Assembly: GCA_017533505.1 (NCBI GenBank)
Contig: JAFXIB010000089.1
Location: 2,009-66,008, forward strand
Source: Clostridia bacterium
GTDB taxonomy: Bacteria > Bacillota > Clostridia > Christensenellales > DTU072
Direction: 5' to 3'
DNA length: 64,000 nucleotides
Shown here piece by piece: positions 24,049 to 48,460 of the stretch (positions are counted from its first letter, which is position 1; the number at the start of each line of letters is the position of its first letter). The notes below the pieces were generated by a model. It was not told the DNA's origin. It worked only from the letters and a program-made list of their open reading frames with translations, and searched no databases. Both the position numbers and the translations under genes were made by a program.

Positions 24049-27000
24049 TTATGCCGAGTACATGGAAACTGTAATATAACGGAGATAGCCGGTATAGTTT
24101 GCAGTTTCCTTCCATAGTGTTGAAATGCTACCACCATATACTTCACAGTCTGGTGAATATACAGCGCCGGCTTCTTTACCAGATTTGATAGTTCCACTTA
24201 CATTCCAGTCAGGACAGATACCACTTGCAGTTCCTGATACAGAATAGAAGTAAACGCTTGCTGAACCACTCAAGTAACCTGTACCTTCAAATCCCCAAGT
24301 GAAACCTGCTTCAATTGAAGCTTGGTTGTAGATTGTACCACCACCACAATACTCTGCTGTTGCTGTTACACTACATGTAGAGTTGCCTCCATTGCCATTA
24401 CCTTTTGCATTACCGATATATGCCCATTGTGTTTGTGATACATCTTCTGCTTGGTCAACCCAAATGTAGTTGAAGTACTTGATGATTGCACTACCACTTG
24501 CACTGATATTTTCATTAGTACTGCTACCTGTGATTGCACCAATATAGGTATCATTTCTACTTTCATCACTTGCTCTTCTGTTTACCATGAGCTTGGAGTT
24601 GTTAGCCACACCACTTACTGCACCTTCGTTGTAGCCAACTATACCACCGATATATAGGGTTGCAGTATCCGCACTCAAGACAGCATGCATACCAGAGTTA
24701 GCGCCACTTGTAGGTACATAAGCTTCATTTGCAGCAGTAACTACTTCGTATGCAGCAGTTGTTGAATTATAATCGTTTGTTGCTCCTTGTGAACCACTGA
24801 TGCTACCACCACTAATTTTGCCTGTGCTTGTGTTGTAGCCGACCATACCGCCATAAGTACCACCTTCAAGTGAAGCATTGATGTTTTGACGAGATGTGAA
24901 TATTCTTGCTGCAACGGAGCCGTTTTCCAAAGTTCCGAAGTTGACACCTACTAGACCACCTACCATTGAGCCAGTTATGCTCAATCTGAAGGTGCTTGAT
25001 GATGATACGGTTGCGCCTGAAATTGTACCATTGTTGAAGCCTGCAATACCACCAGCACCATGCATCATAAAGTTACCTTGGTCAGCAGTTGAATTTGGTG
25101 CTACGAAACCTGCTGTACTATTAGAACGGATGCCCATTGCAGAAGTGATTCTGTAAACGACATTGTTAATTCTTCTATTTGCGCCAATTGAACCAACCAC
25201 ACCACCAATTGCAGCCTTGTTGCTTGATGCGTCAAGACCACCATTAATTACGGTTGCATTTTCAATTGCAACTTGCTCGGTGCTACCGCTATTTGCTTGG
25301 ATGGTACCTGCGATACCACCAGCGCCAATACCTTCTGCGCCAAGAGCAGTACCACTCATTACAGTAACACCACTTGTGGTATATGTGCCATTGCCACCTG
25401 ATACTCTACCATAGTTACCGATTGATCCAACGATACCACCAGCGCCACCAGTGTAGTCAGAGCCTACACCAAGATAGCTACCACCGATGGTTGCAGTAAC
25501 ATTATAGTCTGTTACAGATGAGTTAGTAATCAAGCCTTCTGCATCGGTTTCACCAGCAAGCAAGCCAACTAAGCCACCTACAAAGTTTTGACCATATGCA
25601 GTCCTAATGATGTTTTCAGCACCAGTTGCTACGGTGTGAACATTTTGTACAGTACCACCAAATACTTGACCTGCAAGTACACCAACATTGGTTGCGCTTG
25701 TATATACATAAGATCTACCAATGTTCAAGTTCTTTACAACACCACCACGATAAATCTTTGCAAAGATACCAACATTTTCCATAATGGATGAGTTGGATAG
25801 CTCGAGATATAGGTTGTATAGAGTCTTGCTATTACCATCATAAACACCGTTGAATCCATTTAGATAAGTTACATTGTTGGATGCTGTGAATGCTCCACAA
25901 AGTGGCTCTTCTAAAGCGTTGTTAGTTTCGTTAAGGTTGATGTCAGCTATTTGGATGAAGTGTACTCTTAATACTTCGCTACCATTTTGACCATATACCA
26001 AAGTACCATTGTTGCCCTTGTATAGGCTGTCAATATTTCTCAAATGATCTACGGTTGCAATCTTGAATGGGTTGGTTGCAGAGCCATCACCAGCACTACC
26101 AACCACTCCACCATCAGCAAATGGGTAGTCATACATACCAGTGCCACTCTTTGACTGAGTCTGCAATGTACCTTCTACCCAAACATACTCGTCCCAAGTT
26201 GCTGTGGAGTAGTAGGCAATGTTTTGTACCTTCTTGGTAATTGATGAGCCGTTGAAGTTTACACCAATACTGATATAATCACTTTCGAGTACATTAGCTG
26301 TATCGATAAGTCTTGTTGCATAATCGCCACTTTCTTCACCATCAAAGCTGAATTCTGTGTTGATTGGTATGTTGTTGATTTGGATGATGCCATCGCCACT
26401 ATTGTCACCACTTGTTGCATGTGCGTCGCCAATAGCATCGTCCTTTACATAGTAAGCATCATTACCAAGAATGTCAGCTGATACTTCTACGCTGTTAGGA
26501 TCGTTTTCGTAAAGCACCTCGCCCAATGCGTTAGGTAGCTTGATTGATGAGCCAACATAAACATTGTGGAGCTTCAAAGTACCGAAAGACTCAAAGTTTA
26601 CATTGATGGTCTTTTGTGCATTTGCAGTAATTACAATTTCCATTGCTTCAACTGCATCATTGTATGCTTCGTATGTGGAGCTGTTGTTAGCATCAAAGTT
26701 CTTGAGAGCATCTGGAATGGTGGATTGTTGATAGTCAAGTGAACCATTTTGATCCCAGACATTCCTGTTTTCTTCATCAACAGAAGTGATGCCAGCAAAC
26801 CTATCATACAATGGGTTAAAGTTGGTAGAATCGTTGATGTTGCCCGAATAGTTGGTTACAAGCTTAAACATTAGCTTTGTGCCTACGCGTGCGTCAGTAA
26901 TGTTAATCATTCTTTCGCCACTGAGTTCACCTTGCTCAACCCAAGTGTCACCTACTTGCTTGTAGTACTTGAGCGTGGGCATTGAGTCGGTTAAAACTGG

Positions 27001-29322
27001 GCTTATACCAGAAAGGTTTGTTACCTTTACACTAATAGTGTAAATACGGATATACCTTGCAAAGATCTTGAATGAATCATTCATCAACAAATTGATTTGG
27101 TTGTTGTTGGGGTTGAAGCTATATGTAATCTTTGTATCGGTATCATTACCATTTAGGTCTTGAACTGTTTCTGTCTTGAAGTAATAGGTTGTTTCGCCCT
27201 TTGTTACAGATAGGTTGTTGTCTAACTCGGTTGCGTTTGCAACAAGAGCTTGCTTACCACCTTGACCATTTTCGGTGATATACCAACCTGCGAACTCATA
27301 ACCTTCAATAGTTGCTGGGAGCAAGGTTTGAACGGTATAGTAGTTGAAGTTACCACTTGAACGAGAAATGCTACCAATCTTTGGTTCTACATCGCCCTTT
27401 CCGTCAAGGAAGATATGCTCATCGTTGAGAGCTGTGGACTTAACAAGCTCAAGACTTTCTACCTTTTGGAACAAAGGTCTAATTCTTATAGCATAGATAT
27501 CAAATGAGCTTTCATATTCGCCCAAGCTATCATACTTGGATGCACTATAAGTGAATCCATCAGCATTGTCCTCTGGTACAACACCAGTTGAACCAATGTA
27601 TGCAGGATATGTTGTTGTGAACAAGCATGATACTGGGAATGTGAAGCTTGGCTTGGTTACAAGGTTGGTTTGTGAGTTTGCATCAACATATGGAATATTG
27701 AGCCAACCGAAGTTGCCATCACCAAGGTATGCATAGTATTGCCATGCAATGAATGCAAAGTTGTCATCGCCACCACTTGCACCTGCCCAGTTGAGGCTGA
27801 TGGTGTTATCTCTCCAAGTGTTGTATGGTGAGTTAGCAGAGTTCTTGTCAATATTATTTATAGTATTAATCTTACCAAGCATTTGGAAGTTAATATCGGT
27901 ATTATAGGAAACATCTGCGCCAAGTTTGGGTTCCACACTCATTGAAGAATTGAAATATTGAGTGATGTTTTCATCATACATAGTTGATGTTACGGTAATG
28001 GGTCCTGGGTTGAGATAATCGCCATTATCCAAGTACTCGTTTTCAACTACAATGTTGTATACAGGGATAAACCTTGCAACAACTTCGATGGTATAAGTTG
28101 TTGTTGAAACACCACTCGATACAGTAGTATTTTCAACGATGTTTACACCATTAGATAGGTTGTCAAGGTCGTTGATTACAAAGCTACCTTCATATGTAGA
28201 TGGGTAGTTTTGGATGAGTTGCGTATAGGAATTTATGCCATTGATAAAGTATCCTACAAATTGATAGTATCTTGAGAAGCTCTTGAACTCTGCTTCACTC
28301 AAACTGAAACCGATGTTGTAGTACAAGTTATCATTGTAGTCATACTTCTTGTTAGAAACGGTTGAGTCAGCACTGGAGTTAGATGTAAAGTTGATGTTGT
28401 AACCAGGTGTTGGGTCGTCAATAGATGTTCTTTCGTCAGTTACGAAGCTAATCTTTCTGGTTACTTCAACTTGCTTCCAGAATCTAATCTTGAAGATTGA
28501 GTTTTCGTTCAAGCCATTTAGAGTTACAACAACCCTGCTGATTCTATCGTTGCTGATGTTGGTTGAAGCATTGCCAGTCTCATTGTAATAAGTGATTTGT
28601 ACTCTGCCGTCAGCAGTTGCAACCAATGGGGTATAGGTTGAACTGAATTGCTTGAAGCCTTGCTCATCAGGTGTAGCAAGTGGGAGAAGTTCCATAACAC
28701 TATCAAACCTATAACTTGACTTTGGTGTTATGGTAATTGTCAAGGTTTGGTTAGGTGCCATTGTTACGGAGTTTTCGGTTAGACTTGCAACAGATGTTCC
28801 GTTGATAGCATATCTTACGGTACCACCTTCACCACTTACATTTGAGCCAACGGTTTCCATTGCAAAGCTTGCGTAGATTACATTGTTAAAGTAAGCATAT
28901 ACTAATCTATCTTCCAAGGTATCTACGCCTGTAGAATAGCTATCTTCCATTTGTGCAATCTTGCCACCATTATAAGTGATAACTGAATAGCTATATCCCC
29001 TTGTTGAGTTTACAGAGATACTATCGTTACCAGTAAGCATCAAGTTTGCACCACTCAATACTCTATATGTATAGCTTGCATCCTCTACTCCGTCTATATC
29101 AGTTATTACCTCTCTCATAGCTGAAACATTGGGTAGGATTACACCTTCGCCCTTCGTTGAGTAAGTAACAGTAGCTGTTAGACTTGCATATTGACGATAC
29201 TTCATTCTTGATGGATCATTTGTTGCAAATGAACCTTCAGTGTACTTGTATTCTGGGTGAACTTGAACGGTAATCTCGTAAGTGCGGAAGAATACTGCTC
29301 TAAACTCACGATTTGAAGTCAT
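24049..29322 (-). CDS. Giant surface protein, distal 1,757 codons (B-type repeats then GLUG-motif region); in frame with 29386..36624 across a single TAA
   Basis: Y.F.GW-type repeats (YEFAGWYITENGQG, FVGYFINGINSY). Then NPFKIATVDHLRNIDSLY followed by many GLUG turns (FVGGLVGLLAG, GAGGIVGSIG, GAGGIAGTIQ, IGGVVGSIG, GAGGIAGFNNGTISG, VGGLVGVNFGTLENG, YGGMVGYN, IGGIVGYNEGAVSG). There is no RBS before the called ATG at 29322. Confidence 0.8.
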   Translation of the reverse strand: MTSNREFRAVFFRTYEITVQVHPEYKYTEGSFATNDPSRMKYRQYASLTATVTYSTKGEGVILPNVSAMREVITDIDGVEDASYTYRVLSGANLMLTGNDSISVNSTRGYSYSVITYNGGKIAQMEDSYSTGVDTLEDRLVYAYFNNVIYASFAMETVGSNVSGEGGTVRYAINGTSVASLTENSVTMAPNQTLTITITPKSSYRFDSVMELLPLATPDEQGFKQFSSTYTPLVATADGRVQITYYNETGNASTNISNDRISRVVVTLNGLNENSIFKIRFWKQVEVTRKISFVTDERTSIDDPTPGYNINFTSNSSADSTVSNKKYDYNDNLYYNIGFSLSEAEFKSFSRYYQFVGYFINGINSYTQLIQNYPSTYEGSFVINDLDNLSNGVNIVENTTVSSGVSTTTYTIEVVARFIPVYNIVVENEYLDNGDYLNPGPITVTSTMYDENITQYFNSSMSVEPKLGADVSYNTDINFQMLGKINTINNIDKNSANSPYNTWRDNTISLNWAGASGGDDNFAFIAWQYYAYLGDGNFGWLNIPYVDANSQTNLVTKPSFTFPVSCLFTTTYPAYIGSTGVVPEDNADGFTYSASKYDSLGEYESSFDIYAIRIRPLFQKVESLELVKSTALNDEHIFLDGKGDVEPKIGSISRSSGNFNYYTVQTLLPATIEGYEFAGWYITENGQGGKQALVANATELDNNLSVTKGETTYYFKTETVQDLNGNDTDTKITYSFNPNNNQINLLMNDSFKIFARYIRIYTISVKVTNLSGISPVLTDSMPTLKYYKQVGDTWVEQGELSGERMINITDARVGTKLMFKLVTNYSGNINDSTNFNPLYDRFAGITSVDEENRNVWDQNGSLDYQQSTIPDALKNFDANNSSTYEAYNDAVEAMEIVITANAQKTINVNFESFGTLKLHNVYVGSSIKLPNALGEVLYENDPNSVEVSADILGNDAYYVKDDAIGDAHATSGDNSGDGIIQINNIPINTEFSFDGEESGDYATRLIDTANVLESDYISIGVNFNGSSITKKVQNIAYYSTATWDEYVWVEGTLQTQSKSGTGMYDYPFADGGVVGSAGDGSATNPFKIATVDHLRNIDSLYKGNNGTLVYGQNGSEVLRVHFIQIADINLNETNNALEEPLCGAFTASNNVTYLNGFNGVYDGNSKTLYNLYLELSNSSIMENVGIFAKIYRGGVVKNLNIGRSYVYTSATNVGVLAGQVFGGTVQNVHTVATGAENIIRTAYGQNFVGGLVGLLAGETDAEGLITNSSVTDYNVTATIGGSYLGVGSDYTGGAGGIVGSIGNYGRVSGGNGTYTTSGVTVMSGTALGAEGIGAGGIAGTIQANSGSTEQVAIENATVINGGLDASSNKAAIGGVVGSIGANRRINNVVYRITSAMGIRSNSTAGFVAPNSTADQGNFMMHGAGGIAGFNNGTISGATVSSSSTFRLSITGSMVGGLVGVNFGTLENGSVAARIFTSRQNINASLEGGTYGGMVGYNTSTGKISGGSISGSQGATNDYNSTTAAYEVVTAANEAYVPTSGANSGMHAVLSADTATLYIGGIVGYNEGAVSGVANNSKLMVNRRASDESRNDTYIGAITGSSTNENISASGSAIIKYFNYIWVDQAEDVSQTQWAYIGNAKGNGNGGNSTCSVTATAEYCGGGTIYNQASIEAGFTWGFEGTGYLSGSASVYFYSVSGTASGICPDWNVSGTIKSGKEAGAVYSPDCEVYGGSISTLWKETANYTGYLRYITVSMYSA

Positions 29323-29385
29323 TGTATAACGGAGAATTTGTCCGTTAGATTGTAGTGTAATACCATTTACACCATCTACAACATA

Positions 29386-32300
29386 TTACCATACGCCGTC
29401 AATCTTTTCTTGATATCCTTGGAATGAATACTTGTTGATAACAGCAGAGTCAATTCTTACGGTGTAGGTTGCGTCTGTATTGTACTCGTGCTCAATGGAG
29501 CTCTTGTAGTCGCTGAATGATGCTGAAAGTGTAAATGCATCTCTGTTATTAATCTTTGGAGTATCAGTAGCTGTTACAGTCCTACCATAGTTGGATGAGC
29601 CAACACCTTCAACAAGATACATGCTTGCCTTTGACTCATGCATATCCTTTTTGGTTTCGTAGTAAATACGGATGGTATTCTTGTTGTTGGAGTGGAAGTC
29701 CATCATCTTTAGAATATCAGCATCAAGCGTTACAGCAAGGTTTTCGCCCTTTTGTGAGAATGTGTTGTGATCACGCAAGCCCTCTCTCAAGAAGCTATAT
29801 GTAGTCTTGCTGGTATCGTTATAAGGCAAGTTGTAGAAGGTGACTGATGTGATTGAGTAGCCTTCCTTCAAGTCATGATTGATGAGAGTTGGTGTAACTG
29901 CATCAAAGATGATTTCGTTATTGTTGAGTGATACACCGAGAGTTGAATCTTGATATAGGTTAGTGATTTGTAAATTATTGATGAAGAATACTACACTATA
30001 TCTTTGCTTTTCGTATGTAGGCAAGATGGTAATCTTATCAGCGCCATTTACAAGTTCGTCGTTGATAATTAGTGATACCTTTTCCTGACTTGCGTTGATG
30101 GTGTCGGTAGTATATGTATAATGCATATCTGAACGACCACTAACAGTTGTAGGAATGGTTCTACCATTGATATCAAGGCTTGCGAGATAGTAGCCATCAT
30201 CAGAAATCATATTTACGCCAAATGCTTCATGGTGGCTTACAAGGGTGTTACCAGTTGAGCCATATCTACCACCTGGGCGATGGATATATTCAATGGTATA
30301 TGTCTTGATTACATACTCAACATGAACTCTTATATTACCAGTCATGCTGGGGATTGTGTAGGTACGAGCGCCACTACCATCATCTGCATCAAGGCCACTT
30401 TCGGATAGTACAAGGTTGGATTCTACACCACCATCATTATCCATGATGATGGATACTGCCGAAATCCTATAACCAACAGGAGCTGTTAGTGAAATGGTAA
30501 CCTTATCAGCAAATACTGCAGGGCTGATGTGTACTGTCTTATTTGGATCTGATGGATCAACTACTTCAATAAATACTCTACCATCTGCATCAATGCTTCT
30601 TGGAGTATCGGTTGTAAAGTAGTTTTCTTCTTGTTTTAGAAGTGAACCCTTGTTGAGAACAACACCACTTATTGCATGTACAAGAGTGTCGCTGTTGGTA
30701 ATTTCGGGATATTCCTTATTATAATCGCCACTAAACTCGATATCGTATGCCTTGTTTGCAAGGATTACAAAGATGCTATAATCACTTGTGATGTGCTCCA
30801 AGGTGTGGGTACCACCAAACTCAAGGGTGGAAGTCATATCGCTGTTTTGTCCGTTAAGCAATACCTTATCCATCACATAACCACGACTGATTACAAGTCT
30901 TACGGTTACACTTTCATTCCACTCTACAAGTGAAGTGCTAATGGTAGCAACACCACCTTCAAAGGTGTTAACTTCGATAACATATGTATGGATAGTAAAG
31001 TTGATTTCACATAGAGTATGTGAAACGATAACTTCTCTCTCACGCATCATGGCATCTTCATTAACAATCGCATATGCTTGCTTGTTGATGAAGAAGTTGC
31101 TAATTCTGTAACCTTCATCAGCATTTGGTACTGCCACAAAGATAATCTCTGTACCGTAAGTTACCACGATACCATTTTCGCTTGCCCAAACAACACCACC
31201 TTCAACAGCGCGTTTTGCATAGGTTTTATTTTCGTCTGAAGCGATGTCGCCACTCTCAATGATTTCAATGCCAGGAGCCCATAGGAGAGTGTCTGTTGTA
31301 TCATAAATATAGTACTTACCACCAACGCTTGCGCTCATTTCTACTTCGTAAGTATCAATGGTGTAGGTTACTTCAACATCCATTGCACCAGTTAAAGTAC
31401 CAATAAAGTTGTTGTTTCTTACAGATGTAAGTCTATCTTCGCCATTTACTGTAAATGCTGTACGACTATATCCTACGCCAGGCTTTACTGAAATAGAGTA
31501 GTTGAGACCATACTCATACATGCCGTCAACAACAACGACTGGTTGTTGAGCATAAGGATTGGTAAATGTTGCAATGATGTCGCCTTCACATTCCCATGTT
31601 GAGCCTTGATCGTCAATGGTCATTGTGCCAACATAAGCAAACATTCTTCTTCTAAACTCAACATTTACTGCTTGGATGTCGCTGGAAATGCCATATAGGA
31701 TATATGATCCACCCCTATCATCCAAAGTGGTGATGTTGTTGCTAATCAATTTGCCATCATCATTGTAATATTGGATTTCGAATCTTGCGATGTAGTAACC
31801 TCTGCCAGTTCTGGGAGTTACAACAAACTTAACATTGTTACCATGAGAGAAGCCTTGATATAGTCCGTTTGCATCGCTTTGATATCCGGTGATTGATACA
31901 ACACCATAGGTGTTGCTGTCAACATCGATGGTATTGAAGTTGGGGCTTTGGTTGGATACATTAACTTGGATTTGATACTCATTGATTGCATAAACAACTC
32001 TCAAAGAGATATTGCCTGTTACAACGCCAAGGTCATAGTAGATTTCTGTTAGGTCGTTGGCAGATACATTTTCTACCTTCCAGCCATTGTCCACAACACC
32101 ATTTACGCGTAGCTCTTGGATGTGATATCCCTTTTGAGCACTCATCTTGATGGAAACATGGTCACCTTCGCCAAGTTTTACATTCTTGGCTTGGTCATAC
32201 ATGCTACCTTCCTTTCTTACCAAGGTTTGACCACCAAGAGATTCGTTGATAGTGATGGAGTATACCATTGGAGAGAATGTTACATCCAATGTAGTATCGT

Positions 32301-36660: not shown

Positions 36661-36689
36661 ATTATATATAATAAAAGGCGCGCACGCAA
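36661..36689 (-). promoter_or_regulatory. Candidate promoter of the giant surface-protein gene
   Basis: Minus strand: TTGCGT (36689-36684), 17-nt spacer gcgcgccttttattata, TATAAT (36666-36661), 36 nt upstream of the ATG at 36624. Confidence 0.5.
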
Positions 36690-36761
36690 GTTGCGTACGC
36701 GTTATTTTACTAAAATTTTATCGTGCAGGTGTGTGCACGCAAGCGCATAAGCGTCAAAAAT

Positions 36762-38794: not shown

Positions 38795-38817
38795 TAAAAA
38801 AGCGCTCTACGGCGCTT
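38795..38817 (-). terminator. Rho-independent terminator after mtnN
   Basis: Minus strand: aagcgc-cgtaga-gcgctt followed by ttttttaa, 3 nt after the stop at 38821. Confidence 0.7.
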
Positions 38818-38820
38818 ATA

Positions 38821-39498
38821 TTAAAGTTGACTTATTACTTTTAGCAATGTACTTGAATTTATCTTACAAGCTGTTTCGGCAAGCTCATTATAGCTCAATT
38901 CTGCACCATCTTCGGCTGAATCGCTGATTACCTTTAATGCACCAAACTTTACGCCTAAAATATGGCAAACTTGGGCTACAGCGCCACACTCCATATCACA
39001 AGCTACTGCGCCAAAGGTATTTGCAATAGCCTTGGCTTTGTTTGAATCTGCAATAAAGGTATCCCCTGTTGCCACGATGCCAACAGAAGCGTTTTCAGCG
39101 CCATTTTTGATAGCTTCAACTATTTCCTTGTCCGCATCAAAATAAACCATATTTAGCCCACTGATAAGCCCTATGGGGTCGCCAAGTGCTGTTGTATCGC
39201 TGTCATGCTGACAAACTCTTGATACAGATAGTGCGCTGAGTGGCTTGAGTTTGCCAACACCCCCTGCTATACCTGTATTGATGACAACATCAACACCAAA
39301 CTTTTCCACCATAATGGTGGTGGTAAAGGCTGCGTTAACTTTGCCGATGCCTGCAAGAGCAAGAATAACTTCATTATCCCCCATTTTACCTATGGTAAAA
39401 GTTTTGCCCTTGTACTCAAGACTATAAGTGGATTGAAGCCCAGCGATAATATCGCGGGCTTCCTTATCCATTGCTACTAAAAGTCCAATTTTCCTCAT
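38821..39498 (-). CDS. mtnN: 5'-methylthioadenosine/S-adenosylhomocysteine nucleosidase
   Basis: MRKIGLLVAMDKEA, AGIGKVNAA, INTGIAGG, ATGDTFIAD, ACDMECGAVAQVC. These are the canonical Pfs/MtnN motifs. Confidence 0.9.
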   Translation of the reverse strand: MRKIGLLVAMDKEARDIIAGLQSTYSLEYKGKTFTIGKMGDNEVILALAGIGKVNAAFTTTIMVEKFGVDVVINTGIAGGVGKLKPLSALSVSRVCQHDSDTTALGDPIGLISGLNMVYFDADKEIVEAIKNGAENASVGIVATGDTFIADSNKAKAIANTFGAVACDMECGAVAQVCHILGVKFGALKVISDSAEDGAELSYNELAETACKINSSTLLKVISQL

Positions 39499-40433
39499 TA
39501 TTCAGTGTATGTTTCTACAACGAGTGCGTGTTCTTGGATTGCGATTGGCTTACCAAGGTTGGTTACAACACTGACAAATGCCTTGCCGATTTCTTCGTTA
39601 ACTACATTTTCTGAAGTATCAACTTCTTGACCTTCCTTTTCTGCCGTTTCGTCAGCTTTCTTTGCAAGAACCTTCATGATTGCCTTGGAAATTGGGCTAT
39701 CACTATCGTTAATCTTGAGAGATTGAGATTCGGTCTTCAAGCCATCTTCGCCAAGAATCAATGTTGAGTAGCTTACTGCATATACCTTTTCGGGTAGGCT
39801 GATGAAGCCACCAACACCCATTTCGTCAAGAGTAGCATTTACATCAGCAGCAATAGCAGTTGTTTCGATGCTTGCTACAACACGAAGAGTCCAGCTTTCG
39901 CCATTTTTAGAAATGGTTACTTCATTGATTTTTGCATCAAGGTCTTGTAGATACTTGATAGCTTCGTCGCTTGACTCTGCACCATCACTTACCATTTGAT
40001 TGAAAATATATGCAAGTGTGGTATCTTTGTATGTAATTTCTTGGGTGGTAGGATAGATAATCTTGTCGGTTACGATTGATGAGTAATCGATGGTACCGTC
40101 TTCCTTTTTAGCTACACTACTATTTTCGATAGCTGTGTCAGCAGTACCCTTTTCTTGCTCTTCGTTGACTGGGTTAAGCACGATGTCTTCTTCACTTGGA
40201 TTCATCAATGTTTTGATGAATGAGAATACATCCTTGAGTTTTACATCAGCGAGTCCCAATGTACGCAAGGTTTCGCCTTCAAAAAGCTCAATGTCAGCGA
40301 TACCAATTTGGTCTGGGGTAAGGTTTACTAATACCACTGCTGCGATTACGACAACAAGAATAAGTACGATTATCGTAACGATTGGTCCAATAATGCATCC
40401 TTTGATGATGCCTGGATTTGAGGGTTGTGCCAT
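39498..40433 (-). CDS. N-terminally membrane-anchored extracytoplasmic protein, unknown function
   Basis: 311-aa ORF with a single N-terminal TM (IIGPIVTIIVLILVVVIAAVVLV) and an acidic soluble remainder. Its stop overlaps the mtnN start (ATGA-type coupling). Confidence 0.6.
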   Translation of the reverse strand: MAQPSNPGIIKGCIIGPIVTIIVLILVVVIAAVVLVNLTPDQIGIADIELFEGETLRTLGLADVKLKDVFSFIKTLMNPSEEDIVLNPVNEEQEKGTADTAIENSSVAKKEDGTIDYSSIVTDKIIYPTTQEITYKDTTLAYIFNQMVSDGAESSDEAIKYLQDLDAKINEVTISKNGESWTLRVVASIETTAIAADVNATLDEMGVGGFISLPEKVYAVSYSTLILGEDGLKTESQSLKINDSDSPISKAIMKVLAKKADETAEKEGQEVDTSENVVNEEIGKAFVSVVTNLGKPIAIQEHALVVETYTE

Positions 40434-40506
40434 AATAATTCTCCTTCCTTTTTCCTTTAATAATTTTATTATTACATAATGCTTTTAGGTTGTCAAGATT
40501 AGTTTT

Positions 40507-43083
40507 TTATTGATTTATTGCACTTGTTAGCTTTGCAAACAATTCCTTTGAGTTTGGTACTGGGTCACCGGGCTTAATTTCTGGCTCGCCGTTTTCAAAG
40601 TCAGCACATACCAAGAAACAATCGTTTGTGATATGCATGGGCTTTGTGGGTTTTACAACCATATTTACAAGTGAATTTATTGATCCAAGATTACCAACAG
40701 GCTGACCATTTTCATCTTCAAGTGGAACAATATACTTTGTTAGATTATCATTTGCATTCTCTGTATGGATGATATTGGGGTCAGCTTTAGCAATCAATCC
40801 CATACCAAGAAATGCAAAACTTGCATATTCTTTGCCACCATATTTGTAGAATATATGGTCATACTCTGGCTCTTTTATAAAAGTATTGATGATTTTTGAT
40901 ACAGCATCAACAAGCATATCTCTCAATTGTCCCGATACGATATCAGTACCTACCATACCAAGCAATGTGTTTGAGAATATATTTTTGAATTCAGCGCGTT
41001 GCTTCCAGTTGTAAACATCCATAAAGCCTTCAATATTGATGTCCATACGGAATACTCCGTCGCTAACACGCTCATTAAAGTAGCTTGTAGCAAGCTGAAC
41101 TGCTGCAGCACCTGTTTGCTTAAAGATATTATTACGCAATGTTACTGTACAATGCTCTGCTCTATTGGGCTCATAACCCAAGGATATACCAGCATTAAAA
41201 TTGTCGCCAATAATGCAACCTTCAACAAGGATATTGAGCATATTTTGGATATTTAATCCGTTTGTAAACCCACTGAACTGACAATATTTAACTTCAGCTG
41301 GGCAGAATGACCAATAGAAGTTAATAGCTTCCAAAACATGGTCCGTATCTTTATATGCAGGAGCTCCAATGAAATTTATATCTTCAACAACTGTTGTGCC
41401 TGTGCCTGTTTCCTTCCATTCATAGTGGCCGTTTCCATCCCAAGAAGCCTCAATGACATAGGTACGCCAAGTACCTTCGTTGAGTGGATAGTTTGTAGCA
41501 TCAATTTTAAAACCATTGCCAAATATACTACAACCCAAACCAACAGTATGGTCTGGATAAACATCAGCTTGCAGAACGATATCGTGACGCTTGATATTTA
41601 CAACTCTATCGAACTCTTCCCAGCGGTAAACATTGATAGCATTTTTCTCTCTTACATTGAATGTAAAGCTACGCTTTACGCGTTCTTGCAAAAGGTTGTT
41701 GACCTTCAAAGTTGCTGTTAGTGTTACAGAGTTACCCCTGACGGCATCAAGGAATTGAAGCTCAATGTCTTGGCTGTTTTCAATGGGTGTGATTGTAGCA
41801 TATTCGGGATTAGACAAAGTCCAAACAACATCAAAAGTATTGCTCTTGTCGGCAAGTCCAAAAGTAAACTTATCGGTTATATTGCCGTTTTCGTCAAGGA
41901 AATATTGTCCCCAAGTACGAGTGAGTTGAATACCAAGTTTCTGGTCAGCTGAGCCAAGCTCCATTTCGAAAGCGATGGGGTTTTCTCTTACAATAACTTC
42001 CTTTTCTACACTTTCTCCATTGTAAGTTGCTTTTACCATAACGGTACCAGCTTTAAGTGGAATAAGCATACCAGTAATTGGCTCAAGTTCCAAAATGGAG
42101 CTATCAGAAATCTCAATGGTTGCGCCCTCAATAAGCTCTCCATTGATAAGGTTGCCTACAACTGGATAGTAACCACCATTGCGCGTATACATTGTGCTTG
42201 CAAGTTCAACAAAGCCCCAGCCATCAGCGCTTGCACTGATAAACTCAACTTCTACACTATAACTATTCTTTTGGAACAAATAACGATTATCGGCTATGTT
42301 AGATACTACTATATCACTATCCAACGCGTGATTATCAACTATCCAATCAATGGTAATCTCATCAACATCGGTATAAATTGTCTTTTGTGATACAAGTGCT
42401 TTGGTGGTATCTATATCAACATAGTCAGAAACGGTGTTGCCGTCCTTATCAACAGCATTTACCTTAATTCTTGCAAGGCCTTTTCCTACAACTTTGATTT
42501 CGCCGTTGTTGCTTACAGTTGCAACGGCTGTATTTGATGATGACCATTGGATGTCGTTATTGCGCAAAGCATCAACAGGATGGATATCTACATAGTATTT
42601 TTCGCCATGATAAACATCACGATGCTCGCCAACATCCAAGCCTTGCTCGTCGTAAATACTGATTTGCTCAATGGAATCACTTGTTACATAAAATGTAACT
42701 TCTTGGAAAACATTTATGTTTGCTTTAGCACGAATCTCCAGTTTGGTTACACCAATCTTAACAGGAGTGATAGAGTAGCGATTGCTATCCCCTATTTGCT
42801 CAAGTATGACTTCGCCTTCCCCAGCTTCTGCAACACGCTCATAAATGATTGTTTTATCCTGCGTGATAGCTGGCAAGACATCTATGATGATAAATTCATC
42901 ATAGTTTCTTGAGTCAACCTTGATAATTGTATTCTTGTCAAGCTCCACATTGTCGCTGTCCTTGATTACTATCTCGCTGGGGTTTACAGGCGTAGTAAGA
43001 GATATTATAGCACCAGTCGCTGATAGCGCTATAACCACGACAATAGGTATTAAAAAGATTACACCAACTAAAAATTTCTTCAT
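40507..43083 (-). CDS. N-anchored surface protein with Big_2-like Ig domain(s) and a C-terminal right-handed beta-helix-like region (paralog B)
   Basis: TM anchor MKKFLVGVIFLIPIVVVIALSATGAII. Big_2 signature IQWSSSNTAVATVSNNGEIKVVGKGLARIKVNAVDKDGN. Beta-helix-like turns (GNGFKIDATNYPL, VEGCIIGDNFNAGISLGY, LRNNIFKQTGAAAVQL). Collinear with 43113..45785. Confidence 0.7.
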   Translation of the reverse strand: MKKFLVGVIFLIPIVVVIALSATGAIISLTTPVNPSEIVIKDSDNVELDKNTIIKVDSRNYDEFIIIDVLPAITQDKTIIYERVAEAGEGEVILEQIGDSNRYSITPVKIGVTKLEIRAKANINVFQEVTFYVTSDSIEQISIYDEQGLDVGEHRDVYHGEKYYVDIHPVDALRNNDIQWSSSNTAVATVSNNGEIKVVGKGLARIKVNAVDKDGNTVSDYVDIDTTKALVSQKTIYTDVDEITIDWIVDNHALDSDIVVSNIADNRYLFQKNSYSVEVEFISASADGWGFVELASTMYTRNGGYYPVVGNLINGELIEGATIEISDSSILELEPITGMLIPLKAGTVMVKATYNGESVEKEVIVRENPIAFEMELGSADQKLGIQLTRTWGQYFLDENGNITDKFTFGLADKSNTFDVVWTLSNPEYATITPIENSQDIELQFLDAVRGNSVTLTATLKVNNLLQERVKRSFTFNVREKNAINVYRWEEFDRVVNIKRHDIVLQADVYPDHTVGLGCSIFGNGFKIDATNYPLNEGTWRTYVIEASWDGNGHYEWKETGTGTTVVEDINFIGAPAYKDTDHVLEAINFYWSFCPAEVKYCQFSGFTNGLNIQNMLNILVEGCIIGDNFNAGISLGYEPNRAEHCTVTLRNNIFKQTGAAAVQLATSYFNERVSDGVFRMDINIEGFMDVYNWKQRAEFKNIFSNTLLGMVGTDIVSGQLRDMLVDAVSKIINTFIKEPEYDHIFYKYGGKEYASFAFLGMGLIAKADPNIIHTENANDNLTKYIVPLEDENGQPVGNLGSINSLVNMVVKPTKPMHITNDCFLVCADFENGEPEIKPGDPVPNSKELFAKLTSAINQ

Positions 43084-43112: not shown

Positions 43113-45785
43113 CTAATTTCCCCTTAGTTTATCATATAACTCTCTACTATTTGGAATTGGATCGCCAGGCTTGATGTCTGGCTCGCCTTGACTAAAGTTT
43201 GTACATACTATGGTTGATGGATTACACAAAGTGGTTACATTTGGCATACCAACCTTTGGTGCAAGAGTCTTTATAAGACTCTCAAGTCCGGCCATTCTAC
43301 CAACTGGCTTGCCTTCGCTATCGGCAAATGGTAGGTCTACCATCATTAGGTTTTGTGACTTGATATCAACATGACTACTATCAAAATAGAACAATGCACC
43401 CAATCCAAGCACACCAAATGAAACATATTCTTCACCAGCATACTTAAAGTATAGGTCTTGGATTTCATCACTCTTTGAAATATCAAGTAGCACCTTGTCA
43501 AGTACGGGCATCAAGAGTGTGTCTATTGCCTCCTTAAGATCTCCTGTTGCAACCATACCGACATATCCACCAATAAGATTTGCAAGACTATCGATAAATT
43601 CAGCCTTACTCTTCCAATTATAAATATCGTTAAATCCTTCAAAACGCAAGTCTGGTGCAGAGTTACAATTTGAGTCTATGTTCATATCAATCGGTACACT
43701 TGCAACCATAACACTTGGACCAGAACTAATCTTGAATACATTGTTACGGAATACAATCTTATTGGGTGTATCAAGGCGTCTATCTTTCTCATTATAGAAG
43801 AATGAGAACACGCAAGTTTCAGCATTATCACCCAAGATACAGCCTTCAACCGTTACATCATAGTGGTAGCCAATTTGTATACCCCTGTGGGTGTTATATA
43901 CTTGCAAATAACGGAAATATACTGGGATTTCCTTTTCTGGGAAATCGTTGAATATTGGTCTTGTTTCGTGCCAAATAGCTTCACTCTTGATAGCTACGCC
44001 ACGGCCTTCAGCTTCTTCAATGCTGTTTGCATTGAACATAATCATATCTTCAAAGACTATGGATTCGTTACCTTCGGAAACAAACAAATCATAGTTTGTC
44101 TTGAATTCGGGCTTACGAGTATCTTCAACAAAGTCTTCGTAGTCATACTCTATTGCGCCATCGTCCATATCCATATCGTTCAATGGTACATTTGTAGCAT
44201 CCCACTTGAAGCCATTACCAAACACACTTGCAGTAAGGTCTTCTATGCGTCCAGGTGCAACGATATCAGCTTGAAGCACAATATTATAGAAATGGAATTC
44301 TCTTATCCATCTTGCTTGCTCAAAGGTATAAACATTGATGCTGTTTCTTTGCTCTTTAATTTTGAAAGTAAAGCTACGCTTTACGCGTGTTTGAACAAAC
44401 TCATTTACCTTCAAGGTCGCTGTAATTACAACATCCTTACCTTCTGCTTCATGCTTAAAGTCAATGATGATGTCTTGACCTTCGCCAGTAGGAGTGATTT
44501 CTGCAAAGTTATTATCGTTTACACTCCAAACAACATCAAATGTATTATCTTTGTTTGCAAGGCCGAATTTATACTTTGTAGTTAGGTTGTAGTTTTCATC
44601 AAGCCAGTAAATACCATAGGTTCTATCAAGCTTTATACCAAGCTGTTGGTCTGCTGTACCAAGTTCAAGCTCAAAGGCAAGTGGATTGTCCCTTACAACA
44701 ACTTCCTTGGACTTGGTTTCGCCATTGTATTCTACATTTATAGTAGCAGTACCTGGTTTAAGTGGAAGAATAAATCCTGTTTCCTTTTCATACTCTAATA
44801 CAGAGTTATCACTAAAAGTGATAGTTGCGTTTTCTATGATTTCACCACTGATTAGCTTTGTTGCAACCATAGTGTATCCACCATTGCGTGTATACATCAA
44901 GGATGGAAGGTCGCTGATTTCCCAATCATTTTCGGTTGTAATTATAGTTTCAATAGTCGCGGTAGCATCGTCTGTAACAACTTCAAACTTACCATCGCCA
45001 AGTTCATTTATCGTTGCAGTTGCATCAAGCACAAGGTTTGCCATAACCCAATCACTATCAACTTCTTCTGCAACATAAGCCTTGTTGGTCTTAATAATTG
45101 CATCATTAGTATCGATGTCAACATAGTCAGTTACAGTGTTGCCGTCTTTGTCAATGGCTGTTACCTTGATACGAGCAAGTCCCCTATCAACGATACTTAC
45201 AACACCATTTTGTGATACCTTTGCAACTGATGTATTAGATGATGACCATTGGATATCATTGTTGCGTACTGCATCAAATGGGTTGATGTCTACATATAGC
45301 TTAAGTTCGCTTGAAATCTCTCTGTATTCACCAACTTCAGCACCTTTGTCATCATAGATGGTCATAGTTTCGATGCTGTCGGAAGATACATAGAAAGTTA
45401 CTTCCTTGTAAACATTGACATTTGCCTTTGCGCGTATTTCCAATTTGGTTACGCCTATCTTCTTTGGAACAATTGAGTAGCGATTGCTATCGCCAATTTG
45501 TTCAAGATCAACTTCGCCTTGTCCAGCTTCGTCAATTCTTTCATAAGTAATTGCCTTATCTTGCGTAATTGCAGGCAAAACATCAATAATGATGAATTCA
45601 CTAAAGTCTCTGCTATCAATTTTTATGATGGCATTTCTGTCAATTTCTTCATTATTGCTGTTCTTAATTACCATATCCGATGGATTTACAGGCGTTGTCA
45701 AGCTGATAATAGCACCAGTCGCACTGAGCGCTATTACCACGACAATTGGAATTAAGAATATTACACCTATAAGAAACTTTTTCAT
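43113..45785 (-). CDS. N-anchored surface protein with Big_2-like Ig domain(s) and beta-helix-like region (paralog A)
   Basis: N-terminus almost identical to paralog B (MKKFLIGVIFLIPIVVVIALSATGAIISLTTPVNPS). IQWSSSNTSVAKVSQNGVVSIVDRGLARIKVTAIDKDGN; GNGFKWDATNVPL; VEGCILGDNAETCVF; FRNNVFKISSGPSVMV. Shared C-terminal GEP(D/E)IKPGDP(I/V)PNS(R/K)EL. Confidence 0.7.
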   Translation of the reverse strand: MKKFLIGVIFLIPIVVVIALSATGAIISLTTPVNPSDMVIKNSNNEEIDRNAIIKIDSRDFSEFIIIDVLPAITQDKAITYERIDEAGQGEVDLEQIGDSNRYSIVPKKIGVTKLEIRAKANVNVYKEVTFYVSSDSIETMTIYDDKGAEVGEYREISSELKLYVDINPFDAVRNNDIQWSSSNTSVAKVSQNGVVSIVDRGLARIKVTAIDKDGNTVTDYVDIDTNDAIIKTNKAYVAEEVDSDWVMANLVLDATATINELGDGKFEVVTDDATATIETIITTENDWEISDLPSLMYTRNGGYTMVATKLISGEIIENATITFSDNSVLEYEKETGFILPLKPGTATINVEYNGETKSKEVVVRDNPLAFELELGTADQQLGIKLDRTYGIYWLDENYNLTTKYKFGLANKDNTFDVVWSVNDNNFAEITPTGEGQDIIIDFKHEAEGKDVVITATLKVNEFVQTRVKRSFTFKIKEQRNSINVYTFEQARWIREFHFYNIVLQADIVAPGRIEDLTASVFGNGFKWDATNVPLNDMDMDDGAIEYDYEDFVEDTRKPEFKTNYDLFVSEGNESIVFEDMIMFNANSIEEAEGRGVAIKSEAIWHETRPIFNDFPEKEIPVYFRYLQVYNTHRGIQIGYHYDVTVEGCILGDNAETCVFSFFYNEKDRRLDTPNKIVFRNNVFKISSGPSVMVASVPIDMNIDSNCNSAPDLRFEGFNDIYNWKSKAEFIDSLANLIGGYVGMVATGDLKEAIDTLLMPVLDKVLLDISKSDEIQDLYFKYAGEEYVSFGVLGLGALFYFDSSHVDIKSQNLMMVDLPFADSEGKPVGRMAGLESLIKTLAPKVGMPNVTTLCNPSTIVCTNFSQGEPDIKPGDPIPNSRELYDKLRGN

Positions 45786-45865: not shown

Positions 45866-47506
45866 CTATTTTGCGATTTTGTTGTAAGTTTTAGTCAACT
45901 TGAAACAATAATTGAAAATAGAGCCGATTAGCACGATTCCTGCAAAGGCTGTGCATACGATATACATGAGATTTTCTGTCAATACGAACTCTGTGCCTGG
46001 TACAACAAAGCCATCGTGAGCAAGATAGCTTAAGAACATACACAAAACACCTTCCACAATTGCTACAAAGAAGCCAAGCGCAACACTCAAAGTGGTTGAT
46101 GCGTTGTTGTTTACAACTTCGCCTTCACCAGAAAGGTTGAAATATGGGCGCTTGATATCCATACGCATTGATGAAAGTGTAAGTCCAATTGATATAGCTT
46201 CAACTATAACAAATATCCATAGACCAACCATGGTTTCCACTTGCTTTGTGAAGATAAGCACGCCAACACAAATACCATTTGCAAGTACAGAAACGATAAA
46301 ATACATAAAGAATTTTACAAATAGTTGCTTAACTATGGAAACTGGAGCCACTTTTGTATGATAGAAGTTGTCACCCTCACGGCTAACACTTGTTGCACTA
46401 AAGGATGTTATGACGGTTGCAAAAATGAGCATAACAAGGAGAGTCATACCAAGTGCAATTTGCTCGCCGATTTGGTCTTGTCCAAGTTGGAGAGTAATGT
46501 TGTTGCAGAAGTAAACCATAACAGGCATTGCGCATGCGAGTACAAAATATTGGAAGGAGTAGTTTACAGAACGGAATACTTGCAAAAATTCTTTGTGCAA
46601 TAGCGCAACAAAGATGGGACGGCGTCTGTTTTTGGTTTTATGTTTGAAGGCAGAGCCTTCAACTTCTATATTATTTAGTAGTGTTTTTGCATAAAGCTTT
46701 GCAATAACAAGTATTGTACCAATGAGTCCCAAACCAGTTAGTCCAATGAGAACTGGATATGCAATATAAAGTTCATGCCCTATCAATACATCAGCAAAAT
46801 ACTTTGTTGGTATCAAATATTTGGCAACTTCTACTATAACTGCAACAAAACCATCACTAAATACACTAAACTCGGTATCGTTCATAAATGTTACCATTCT
46901 ATCAAACAGCAACATATATACTGCAAACATCAAAGTTACACAAATTGCAAGACCAATGATAATCAAGCCAAACTTATTACGGATTTTGTTGGTAAGATGC
47001 ATGATTGGTATAGCAAGCATATTTGAAATAAAGAATGGTATAAACATCATAAATAATACCGAAACAGGTATCATTTTATAAAAATCTACACCCAATTCCA
47101 TTGTATGTGCGTAAGAAATCAAAAATGGAACCAATACCACTGCAGTGATTGCAAATTGTGTGATAATTAGGAATAGTGTCTTGCTGATGAATACTTCTGT
47201 ACCAGATACAGGGTATCTCATCAAGATTTCGTTGTCGCCCTTGTAATAAAGTACCTTTATCGTTGATGATGTGCCGATAAAACACATAAACAAAAAGAAT
47301 ACCGTATATACCAAAACAAGGGATTCGTATGCAATTTCTGCCTTATCGAACATTTCAAACAACATACATCCCACATAGTAAATACCGTAAATTGCCACAG
47401 CAAGCAATATAGGATATCCTATATATTTCAGCCAAGAATTCTTGCTTTGAGAATTTCCGGAAAATCTATTTTTTAACTCCAAACGGAGCAAAGTTCTAAT
47501 ATTCAT
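45866..47506 (-). CDS. Large polytopic ABC-exporter permease (about 12 TM, ABC-2/ABC_export-like)
   Basis: 546 aa, highly hydrophobic throughout. It lies 24 nt downstream of an ABC ATPase gene. The assignment rests on context and architecture. Confidence 0.7.
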   Translation of the reverse strand: MNIRTLLRLELKNRFSGNSQSKNSWLKYIGYPILLAVAIYGIYYVGCMLFEMFDKAEIAYESLVLVYTVFFLFMCFIGTSSTIKVLYYKGDNEILMRYPVSGTEVFISKTLFLIITQFAITAVVLVPFLISYAHTMELGVDFYKMIPVSVLFMMFIPFFISNMLAIPIMHLTNKIRNKFGLIIIGLAICVTLMFAVYMLLFDRMVTFMNDTEFSVFSDGFVAVIVEVAKYLIPTKYFADVLIGHELYIAYPVLIGLTGLGLIGTILVIAKLYAKTLLNNIEVEGSAFKHKTKNRRRPIFVALLHKEFLQVFRSVNYSFQYFVLACAMPVMVYFCNNITLQLGQDQIGEQIALGMTLLVMLIFATVITSFSATSVSREGDNFYHTKVAPVSIVKQLFVKFFMYFIVSVLANGICVGVLIFTKQVETMVGLWIFVIVEAISIGLTLSSMRMDIKRPYFNLSGEGEVVNNNASTTLSVALGFFVAIVEGVLCMFLSYLAHDGFVVPGTEFVLTENLMYIVCTAFAGIVLIGSIFNYCFKLTKTYNKIAK

Positions 47507-47530
47507 ATCGTTTTTCCTTGGTTTTTAGCA

Positions 47531-48301
47531 TTAATCGTGCAAAATGATGTTTCTGCTCAAAGTGCTTTCTTGATTGATGAGGTCTTGTTCGGTAGCAGTA
47601 ATTTTGCAGAATGTGGTTTCGAGTGTTTCTTTGTTGCCCTTGATGTGTAGGTCAATTACAGTTTGGAGTCTGCCGTCTTTGATGATAGCAACTCTATCAC
47701 AAATTTTGGATACAAGGTCAAGGTTGTGTGAGCTAAAGAAAACTGTGTTACCATCTGCGCAGTGGTCATCCATTCTCTTGAGAATTTCTACCATTGATTG
47801 GTGGTCAAGACCCATCATAGGTTCGTCAAGTACCCATAGCTTTGGATTGTGAATGAGTGCTGCAATGATACAAATTTTTTGCTTCATACCATGTGAGTAT
47901 GACTTGATTTGATTATCAACTGCCTTGGTGAGCTTAAATTGATTGACATATTTTTCAAACCTTTCATTACGGTCGCGCTTGGAAACCTTGTATAGGTCAG
48001 CAGTATAGTTAACATACTCTCTACCAGTTAGCTTTTCGTAAACAGAGTGGTTGTCTGGAACATATCCCATATTGAGCTTTGCATTGATAGGATCCTTTTG
48101 GATATCATGTCCGCAAATGGTAATTGTACCTGAATTAAAAGGATAAATACCTGTCAAACACTTGATAGTTGTTGATTTACCTGCACCATTTTGACCCAAA
48201 AAACCAAAAATTTCGCCTGGTTTTAGTGAAAGGTTAAGGTCTTCAACAGAAAAGCGTTCTGAATTCATATACTTTTTATAAAGGTGACTGATTTCTAACA
48301 T
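47531..48301 (-). CDS. ABC transporter ATP-binding protein
   Basis: Walker A GQNGAGKST, Q-loop, signature YSHGMKQK, Walker B LWVLDEP, H-loop FFSSHN. The start is reset to MLEISHLYKKY (48301), which has aggagtaat upstream. The track's 11-codon extension lacks an RBS. Confidence 0.9.
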   Translation of the reverse strand: MLEISHLYKKYMNSERFSVEDLNLSLKPGEIFGFLGQNGAGKSTTIKCLTGIYPFNSGTITICGHDIQKDPINAKLNMGYVPDNHSVYEKLTGREYVNYTADLYKVSKRDRNERFEKYVNQFKLTKAVDNQIKSYSHGMKQKICIIAALIHNPKLWVLDEPMMGLDHQSMVEILKRMDDHCADGNTVFFSSHNLDLVSKICDRVAIIKDGRLQTVIDLHIKGNKETLETTFCKITATEQDLINQESTLSRNIILHD

Positions 48302-48460
48302 ATTACTCCTTCGTATGTACGCGCACGCGCGCACTTATTATATAATATACATTTGTATATTAACATACTTATTATATATAGTCAAGAACAAAATTTGATT
48401 TGAATGGAAATTTAGCCTAAAATTACCAAAAATCATCTCCATATCTCTATCAAACAACTG

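Follow-up and report, generated by a model that had tools for sequence, protein, structure and literature searches.

A putative cell-envelope gene cluster of uncultured Clostridia combining an ABC-2-class transporter, two membrane-anchored Ig/beta-helix paralogs, and a giant fiber

The NosDFY complex, in which ATP-binding cassette (ABC) proteins of the ABC-2 type, NosFY, are combined with the periplasmic beta-helix protein NosD, assembles nitrous-oxide reductase, and in LptB2FG–LptC and FtsEX–PcsB/EnvC, movements driven by ATP are passed on to the cell envelope by single-pass or stalked partners. Gut anaerobes commonly bear giant fibrillar proteins on their surface, and to our knowledge almost nothing is known about the deployment of giant fibers outside type I secretion, sortase anchoring, and accessory Sec (aSec) systems. 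Here, we analyzed a locus of a Clostridia bacterium (GenBank assembly GCA_017533505.1, contig JAFXIB010000089.1, positions 2,009 to 66,008; hereafter “the window,” i.e., the whole 64,000-nucleotide stretch under study, in which coordinates are counted) where genes for an ABC-2-class transporter are followed by genes for two paralogous anchored proteins, ParA and ParB, and, further downstream, by a giant gene predicted to encode a surface fiber. This combination of an ABC transporter, two anchored immunoglobulin (Ig)-like/beta-helix proteins, and a 4,191-residue fiber has not previously been described. The locus is a vertically inherited cell-envelope cluster restricted to one clade of uncultured Clostridia from guts and digesters. 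Our favored reading as a whole, to which we would give a probability of about 45% on the basis of sequences and structural models, is that of an envelope cluster in which an ABC-2 transporter with two ectoprotein partners would serve the fiber or the cell surface. The genes of the locus are as follows:

47531..48334, minus strand: ABC ATPase of the DrrA/ABCA-like (type V, ABC-2) class (Pfam ABC_tran 1.8e-30), with a likely ATG start at 48301
45866..47506, minus strand: 546-residue permease of the ABC-2 clan (ABC_tran_2; PF16949, 43 bits for a cutoff of 25.7), with about 12 transmembrane (TM) segments
43113..45785, minus strand: ParA, 890 residues, with an N-terminal TM helix, an Ig-like stalk (Big_2), and a C-terminal beta-helix-type domain
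40507..43083, minus strand: ParB, 858 residues (Big_2 and a weak generic Beta_helix match in Pfam; AlphaFold model)
39498..40433, minus strand: p311, small N-anchored acidic protein of 311 residues with a conserved N-terminal motif
38821..39498, minus strand: mtnN, methylthioadenosine/S-adenosylhomocysteine nucleosidase (NCBIfam PRK05584, 193.5 bits for a cutoff of 169)
36762..38747, minus strand: fusion of GlmM and the acetyltransferase left-handed beta-helix (LbH) domain of GlmU (four PGM_PMM domains plus Hexapep; glmM 6.6e-114; GlmU profile positions 241-447)
24049..36624, minus strand: giant gene of 4,191 codons, seen as two open reading frame (ORF) pieces, 29386-36624 and 24049-29322 (Flg_new_2 2.2e-14, Flg_new 1.8e-10)

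With NosDFY, this locus shares the adjacency of genes for an ABC-2-class ATPase and permease to a gene for an extracytoplasmic protein with a predicted right-handed beta-helix, with which the transporter would cooperate instead of being a plain pump. It differs from it by having two paralogous partners, each TM-anchored and carrying about five Ig domains, and by its single 12-TM permease chain, where NosDFY has a 6-TM homodimer. Membership of the NosD family itself was rejected: there is no NosD Pfam match, NosD is not among the 50 best PDB fold matches listed, and no nos genes occur in the window; the likeness is one of analogy only. With LptB2FG–LptC and FtsEX, the likeness would lie in a constrained TM helix of the partner and a stalked extracytoplasmic effector, as inferred from an anchor that is 73% conserved (see below). 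However, these two systems belong to types VI and VII, whereas the present transporter is of the ABC-2/type V class, no kinship of sequence or fold links them, and the cluster is devoid of lipopolysaccharide or peptidoglycan-hydrolase domains.

The evidence that these genes belong together comes from their relatives, in which the conserved order is nagB (glucosamine-6-phosphate deaminase) in the opposite orientation (-), and then ATPase, permease, ParA, ParB, p311, mtnN, GlmM/acetyltransferase (not always present), and the giant gene. A scan of one genome per GTDB species, in which the order was scored by tblastn with the window proteins, yielded 35 loci (labeled Ca. Stercoripulliclostridium, Christensenellaceae, Christensenella sp. 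UBA3944, or Clostridia bacterium), and the gene order is kept wherever the contig is long enough. The full order is also found where the paralogs are only 33-40% identical to those of the window, namely in an anaerobic-digester contig (L012), a contig from another metagenome (L014), a metagenome-assembled genome (MAG) from NCBI (L016), and a further sample (L059), and likewise in L013, from another metagenome. The DNA upstream of nagB and its SIS-domain neighbor varies by lineage (ECF transporter-TruA-L13-S9, GcvP-AcnX, Peptidase_U32-RlmL, or Mfd), which indicates that the cluster has outlived the surrounding gene order. The ATPase/permease pair and the paralogs are adjacent in every locus covering both, and the constant unit is made of the ABC ATPase, the permease, and the two paralogs. 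As for the fiber gene, 18 species loci extend 6 kb or more beyond ParB, and it is present in 14 of them. In the reverse direction, a profile of the N-terminal 400 residues of the fiber, searched against JGI metagenomes, retrieved nine loci. Seven of them reach 7 kb or more upstream, and all seven carry the paralogs and mtnN, six also p311 (none detected in L065); among shorter contigs, L060 carries p311 and mtnN and L066 the GlmM/acetyltransferase, while the upstream sequence of L064 is too short. The original prediction, made from the letters of the window alone, had conceded that the linkage could be coincidental and had left the matter to a comparison of gene neighborhoods. Such a comparison shows the genes to be syntenic in relatives at 28-40% paralog identity despite several replacements of the upstream flank, and independently retrieved giant orthologues lie behind the same genes; together, these observations argue that the linkage is selected rather than coincidental. 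The prediction had named missing synteny in relatives as a ground for its refutation, and as the synteny is there, it survives in part, with a real linkage and a function that would still be a proposal.

ParA and ParB are 47% identical overall, and ParA always comes first in the pair among relatives. Homologues of ParB form about 77 full-length clusters, all from Clostridia MAGs, and an exhaustive HMMER search of 1.84 billion representative proteins with the C-terminal domain of the paralogs gave 68 matches at E≤1e-3, the full-length ones being mostly of about 830-1030 residues with the domain in C-terminal position. By these counts, the Par family is tiny and essentially fixed in its architecture. 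Its most conserved part is the membrane anchor: mean pairwise identity among 45 paralog sequences amounts to 73% in the TM region and 62% in the C-terminal Pro-rich tail, versus 28-44% in the Ig and beta-helix parts, and residues M1, K2, K3, F4, L5, I12, and P13 of the anchor are invariant. As a control, the TM segment of the fiber is 46% identical, which is not above its ectodomain. Within genomes, the anchors of ParA and ParB are 54-97% identical, versus 30-43% for their C-terminal regions, which would be consistent with a common membrane partner, with gene conversion, or with the two together. In L023 (7289-12580), ParA and ParB are 82% identical over residues 231-480 and 34% in the C-terminal region, which indicates a recent gene conversion between them, in another segment than in the lineage of the window. 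The single N-terminal TM anchor that had been proposed for ParA, ParB, p311, and the giant protein was recovered by hydropathy analysis, and the reported lack of LPXTG, SLH, and choline-binding modules is borne out by the absence of a C-terminal LPXTG motif and of SLH or CW_binding Pfam matches.

In its AlphaFold model (pLDDT 86.7, pTM 0.78), ParB is predicted to consist of a TM helix (residues 2-30), about five Ig-like domains (35-477), a right-handed beta-helix (480-695), a helical hairpin, a beta subdomain, and, at its end, the conserved Pro-rich tail. Compared as a whole chain with Foldseek, it retrieved generic Ig arrays with TM-scores of about 0.1, including the S-layer proteins SbsB, Sap, EA1, and SbsC as well as cadherins.

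With regard to the transporter, the ATPase (PF00005 1.8e-30) matches the drrA subfamily at 1.5e-60, below the equivalog cutoff, and also resembles the lantibiotic-protection and PSM-export subfamilies of NCBIfam. Its closest solved structures are the nucleotide-binding domains of ABCA1/4/7, with NosF (chains 7o0y/7qba) and LptB ranking lower, and it is a bare nucleotide-binding domain of about 256 residues devoid of a carbohydrate-binding extension. Taken with the ABC-2-clan permease, this ATPase subclass assigns the transporter, at the level of sequence, to the type V/ABC-2 class. Relative to the window and over the same loci, identities range over 80-99% for the ATPase, 52-86% for nagB, 40-62% for GlmM, 35-84% for mtnN, and 28-82% for the paralogs; the ATPase is thus conserved like a ribosomal protein across the clade although it looks like an accessory ABC subunit, with GlmM, nagB, and mtnN at 35-86%. 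The permease, for which hydropathy indicates about 12 TM segments and of which an orthologue also matches 12TM_1, has a weak ABC2_membrane_4 match at residues 302-443 that starts from profile position 1, and its motif L.LELKNRF (about residues 8-16) recurs as LLHKEFLQVFR (about 302-312); this second domain start and the repeated motif suggest that the permease may consist of two fused ABC-2-like halves. A PDB sequence search with the permease found no relative, and a homology search returned only clade members of at least 65% identity among the 120 matches listed, so that it is uninformative on outgroups; a literature search on PF16949/ABC_tran_2 found no functional study.

Given such features, one may ask whether the paralogs could simply be structural surface proteins, forming an S-layer-like or Ig adhesin coat, next to an ABC transporter that is an unrelated efflux or resistance pump. 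The S-layer proteins and cadherins among the best whole-chain matches and the DrrA-, lantibiotic-protection-, and PSM-export-like character of the ATPase would agree with it, but TM-scores of about 0.1 are those of generic Ig arrays, one would not expect the best-conserved segment of a protein to be a passive anchor, transporter and paralogs are never seen apart in loci covering both, and an identity of 80-99% would be unusual for the ATPase of an accessory resistance pump. We hold this explanation to be improbable.

Between and around the genes, the following flanking genes and candidate regulatory sites were found:

49360..50394, minus strand: SIS-domain protein, similar to the isomerase half of GlmS or to NagB-II (NCBIfam NagB-II 5.4e-60, below cutoff)
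48528..49256, plus strand: nagB, glucosamine-6-phosphate deaminase (TIGR00502, 296 bits for a cutoff of 237)
48357..48385, minus strand: promoter-like site 5' of the ABC ATPase (TTGACT-17-TAATAT with an upstream TG, 9/12; a consensus match only)
40468..40496, minus strand: promoter-like site in the gap between ParB and p311 (TTGACA-17-AATAAT with an upstream TG, 11/12; the best match of the region)
38800..38817, minus strand: terminator-like hairpin 3' of mtnN (AAGCGCCGTAGAGCGCTT, then a T-run)
36679..36701, minus strand: terminator-like hairpin 3' of the GlmM fusion (10-bp stem, 7 pairs of which are GC), with a TATAAT-like box between it and the giant gene

From the ATPase to the giant gene, the intergenic gaps are of 24, 80, 29, 73, -1, 73, and 137 nt. 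The original prediction had the layout right: all eight frames lie at the coordinates that it gave, in the same order, on the minus strand, and with gaps of at most 140 nt, its domain calls for the locus were reproduced with Pfam and NCBIfam, and NCBIfam also identified the flanking nagB and SIS protein that it had reported. The shared orientation on which it had put emphasis is observed as well, but carries little weight as evidence because nearly all genes between 2 and 48 kb are on the minus strand and the GC skew is negative throughout. The divergently transcribed nagB adjoins the ABC ATPase in nearly all loci and forms a conserved left border, whereas the SIS protein is the upstream flank only in a Stercoripulliclostridium-like subgroup and lies 5' of nagB in many, not all, loci. 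Since the numbers of promoter-like and terminator-like sites in the region are not above shuffled expectation, only intergenic position and conservation carry weight. In this regard, the hairpins after mtnN and after the GlmM fusion recur at the same positions in the relatives L017 and L020 (the stem sequence on the mtnN side differs in L020), which makes it reasonable to retain the earlier count of at least three transcription units. These would be ABC-permease-ParA-ParB-(p311-mtnN), the GlmM fusion, and the fiber gene. The promoter that had been placed at 36661-36689 overlaps the terminator hairpin (36701-36679) together with the TATAAT-like box. An Rfam scan of the locus found no RNA element.

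In the reading that we favor, an envelope cluster serving the fiber or the cell surface, ParA and ParB would dock onto the permease through their unusually conserved TM helices, and with the permease and an ATPase dimer they would form one ATP-driven envelope complex, in which the two paralogs may match two putative ABC-2-like halves of the permease. Such a complex could either export a surface component for the beta-helix heads to act on or control these heads by ATP hydrolysis. The giant fiber and the small anchored p311 would be the most likely clients or partners of the complex, and nagB, mtnN, and the GlmM/acetyltransferase would most likely be housekeeping genes, either trapped in the cluster or co-regulated with it. 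A bolder version, which we regard as rather doubtful, is that of a hitherto undescribed, partner-coupled type V ABC machine which, with two co-evolving, Ig-stalked beta-helix partners docked onto it by their single TM helices, would use ATP to assemble, maintain, or remodel the membrane-anchored fiber of about 4,000 residues in an uncultured family of gut Clostridia; that such a machine would be a Gram-positive counterpart of NosDFY, LptB2FGC, or FtsEX is, by analogy, an equally speculative proposition.

Several observations weigh against the favored reading. The similarity of the anchors within genomes could be a product of gene conversion, of which some lineages show clear cases; the beta-helix lies beyond about five Ig domains and may therefore sit far from the membrane, unlike NosD; and the comparison of the N-half with the C-half of the permease by hhalign gave no significant duplication (probability 3.6%). 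The number of paralogs varies, with three in L044, L047, and L068 and apparently one in L063, and distant members of the family (P0077 type) occur without ABC genes nearby. Four of the 18 species (L032, L033, L041, and L046) keep the ABC genes and both paralogs with no adjacent giant gene, unrelated enzymes or an unrelated lipoprotein being found downstream of the core instead. All genomes are MAGs of one clade, so that part of the synteny is owed to deep vertical inheritance, and any role of the cluster in fiber export, maturation, or glycosylation would be an extrapolation from gene context.

The P0077-type proteins (L011, 1-15684; L058) are 24-26% identical to the paralogs of the window and keep the MKKFL anchor. 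Their contexts are syntenic with one another (FtsH, DUF1256, CvpA, AroE-AroK, and no ABC genes), and in L011 the neighbor of the P0077-type gene encodes a 7,046-residue protein of CarboxypepD_reg repeats. A homology search with P0077 added few sequences, of which P0242 shares its ABC-less context and P0245 lies in a full cluster.

It could also be argued that the ABC-paralog module and the fiber gene are two unrelated neighbors, adjacent through shared descent, as would be mtnN, GlmM, and nagB. The fiber gene indeed appears as a separate transcription unit behind a conserved terminator, housekeeping genes stand between it and the core, the core does without it in the four species mentioned above, and the data all come from one lineage. 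Yet the cluster has stayed intact through at least four turnovers of its upstream flank, paralog genes precede every fiber orthologue of the reverse search for which 7 kb or more of upstream sequence is available, and the adjacency persists at about 30% identity of the surface proteins, so that we consider mere neighborhood rather unlikely.

What is at stake is a rare Par family that is tied to an ABC-2 transporter of unusual conservation and, for most species, also to a fiber of about 4,000 residues. If the proposed coupling is real, monoderm bacteria would have a partner-coupled ABC system of a new type, and there would be a point of entry to the cell surface of a clade that is uncultured yet widespread in ruminant guts, chicken guts, and digesters, for which a literature search on Stercoripulliclostridium found no functional study of the surface. 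If the coupling is not real, a well-delimited, clade-specific surface cluster and a corrected model of the giant ORF would still stand.

What the beta-helix heads might act on is a question on which their fold bears. Modeled in isolation, the C-terminal domain of ParB (pLDDT 89.9) again adopts a right-handed beta-helix, and Foldseek relates it weakly to pectate lyase, alginate epimerase, chondroitinase B, WceF, and VexL (best E 0.015, TM-score about 0.34, about 10% identity). This structural search, which had been suggested for the paralogs, thus recovered the beta-helix fold class that had been anticipated, albeit through weak matches; in the model, the fold class is clear, namely a divergent right-handed beta-helix, but the matches assign it to no enzyme family, and E621, K655, D689, and N651/N652 are among its conserved residues. 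VexL (PMC6003464) belongs to an ABC-dependent capsule system, and the locus can be likened to the Wzm/Wzt, TarGH, VexL, AlgG/AlgL, and WceF systems, in that a type V ABC exporter is found with a protein of pectate-lyase fold outside the membrane. It departs from ABC-dependent polysaccharide systems by its lack of glycosyltransferases and of a priming enzyme and by fold matches that are not significant, and from their beta-helix enzymes by the fact that those of the cluster are membrane-anchored, paralogous, and Ig-stalked.

On this likeness one could build another explanation, in which a lipid-linked surface glycan leaves the cell through the ABC-2 transporter, as with Wzm/Wzt or TarGH, the beta-helix proteins are its lyases, epimerases, or trimmers, nagB, GlmM, and the acetyltransferase supply amino-sugar precursors, and the fiber is decorated by the glycan or embedded in it. 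It draws on the closest folds of the C-terminal domain, which are polysaccharide lyases, epimerases, and depolymerases, VexL and AlgG included, on the type V class of the ATPase, on the amino-sugar genes that flank and interrupt the locus, and on a GT2-TPR gene lying directly after the paralogs in L046. It is nevertheless unlikely in our view: all fold matches are weak (E≥0.015, TM-scores of about 0.3), the ATPase is without a carbohydrate-binding extension, and no glycosyltransferase, polymerase, flippase, or polyprenyl-phosphate priming enzyme is found at the window locus among the window ORFs of at least 150 residues. The remark that no glycosyltransferase is visible therefore stands for the window, the GT2-TPR gene being specific to the L046 variant.

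The amino-sugar genes, too, are a weak hint of a glycan. All four PGM domains are found in the GlmM part, but its 381 bits stay under the cutoff of 447.55; of GlmU, only the acetyltransferase LbH domain is matched, and no uridylyltransferase domain occurs anywhere in the window. Most of the clade has the GlmM and acetyltransferase parts fused, and the UBA3944-like lineage (L012, at 13855-15841, L039, and L065) encodes them by separate adjacent genes. L044, L047, L060-L063, L067, and L068 have no GlmM/acetyltransferase gene separating mtnN from the giant gene. Being set between two conserved terminators and missing in several variants, the GlmM/acetyltransferase gene is probably a bystander, that is, a housekeeping gene embedded in the cluster, and the earlier idea of a local supply of N-acetylglucosamine-1-phosphate is weakened accordingly, all the more so as no glycosyltransferase or priming enzyme accompanies it at the window locus. 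As for p311, it has no match in Pfam, NCBIfam, or PDB; present in most loci, it has a conserved N-terminus in relatives made of MAQP.TPG.LKGC, the TM segment, and LN(L/M)TP..LG(I/L)AD. Its stop codon is overlapped by 1 nt by the start of mtnN in the window. The mtnN gene stays between p311 and the fiber (or GlmM) gene in most loci, and the cluster contains no enzyme that uses S-adenosylmethionine.

The giant gene was originally described as a split ORF, on account of the following feature:

29386..29388, minus strand: in-frame TAA interrupting the giant ORF in this assembly (CAA in L052-L055)

This interruption is real in the assembly, and the two pieces are in one frame, separated by the single TAA and then 21 codons up to the ATG of the second piece. 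However, in four independent metagenome contigs (L052-L055) that are 99.6-99.96% identical to the window, the same codon is CAA (Gln), and the contig at 99.96% identity is annotated with a single giant product of 4,191 residues. The stop is a single C>T difference not seen in relatives, and we therefore treat the giant ORF as one gene of 4,191 codons. Since near-identical contigs simply have CAA, neither readthrough nor recoding of the TAA was retained as an explanation. Over 20.5 kb, the window and L052 show 8 differences, two of which disrupt a gene: the giant-gene TAA and a 1-nt deletion near 18456 in a GH38 gene. The latter encodes an alpha-mannosidase (15695-18642), the ORF of which is shortened from 982 to 892 residues by the deletion at about 18456 relative to the 99.96% identical contig. 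Comparable lesions are seen in near-identical contigs, with a TAT>TAA change in the ABC ATPase at about 2420 of L001 (window 48014), and an N-gap (1874-1956) and a 1-nt deletion (about 6550) in the fiber gene of L055. Such disruptions in near-identical MAG contigs suggest consensus errors or low-frequency variants. Phase variation was rejected as their cause, the changes being point substitutions or a single-base deletion outside repeat tracts; in the window too, assembly errors or sporadic variants are the more likely explanation of the two disrupted genes.

Read as a single product, the fiber comprises a short N-terminal cytoplasmic motif, one TM helix, about 3,400 residues of beta domains of the InlB-B-repeat/Flg_new type, a Gly-rich, GLUG-like region at about 3500-4000, and a Cys-containing C-terminal end, and its length stays within about 3,700-4,200 residues across the clade (4,142 in L012). 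Pfam matches are those of Flg_new_2 (53.6 bits, cutoff 23.6) and Flg_new (41.2 bits, cutoff 27). The GLUG repeats that had been named in this protein were not recovered as such, since its C-terminal 1,757 residues match no Pfam family, PF07581 included, at E≤0.01; the GLUG-like label leans on a weak BLASTP match (E=8e-4) to a GLUG protein of the window and on eight GG[ILV][VA]G motifs. With its Flg_new, Flg_new_2, and GGxVG-type repeats, the fiber resembles the giant InlB-B-repeat/GLUG surface proteins of Firmicutes, from which it differs by being anchored through an N-terminal TM helix instead of LPXTG, SLH, or CWB modules and by being tied to a conserved accessory cluster. A giant adhesin beside dedicated genes also recalls the type I secretion of giant RTX adhesins and the aSec (SecA2-Y2) system. 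Unlike the former, the cluster has no type IV exporter ABC, no membrane-fusion or outer-membrane component (HlyD, TolC), and no C-terminal RTX signal, and unlike the latter, it has neither SecA2/SecY2 nor glycosyltransferases at the locus.

The surroundings of the locus are ordinary. They include a PuuR-like regulator with a Pot-type ABC importer (18806-23818, minus strand), a complete pyrimidine biosynthesis operon (53908-63240, minus strand), a BspA-type LRR protein (51297-52559, plus strand), and two tRNA genes (50522-50594 and 7043-7116). Finally, a 660-residue surface protein (9237-11219, minus strand), with clear GLUG (6e-21) and Flg_new matches, resembles a miniature of the head of the giant fiber; its gene adjoins two small ORFs, one of which encodes an HTH-cupin regulator (8119-8670).

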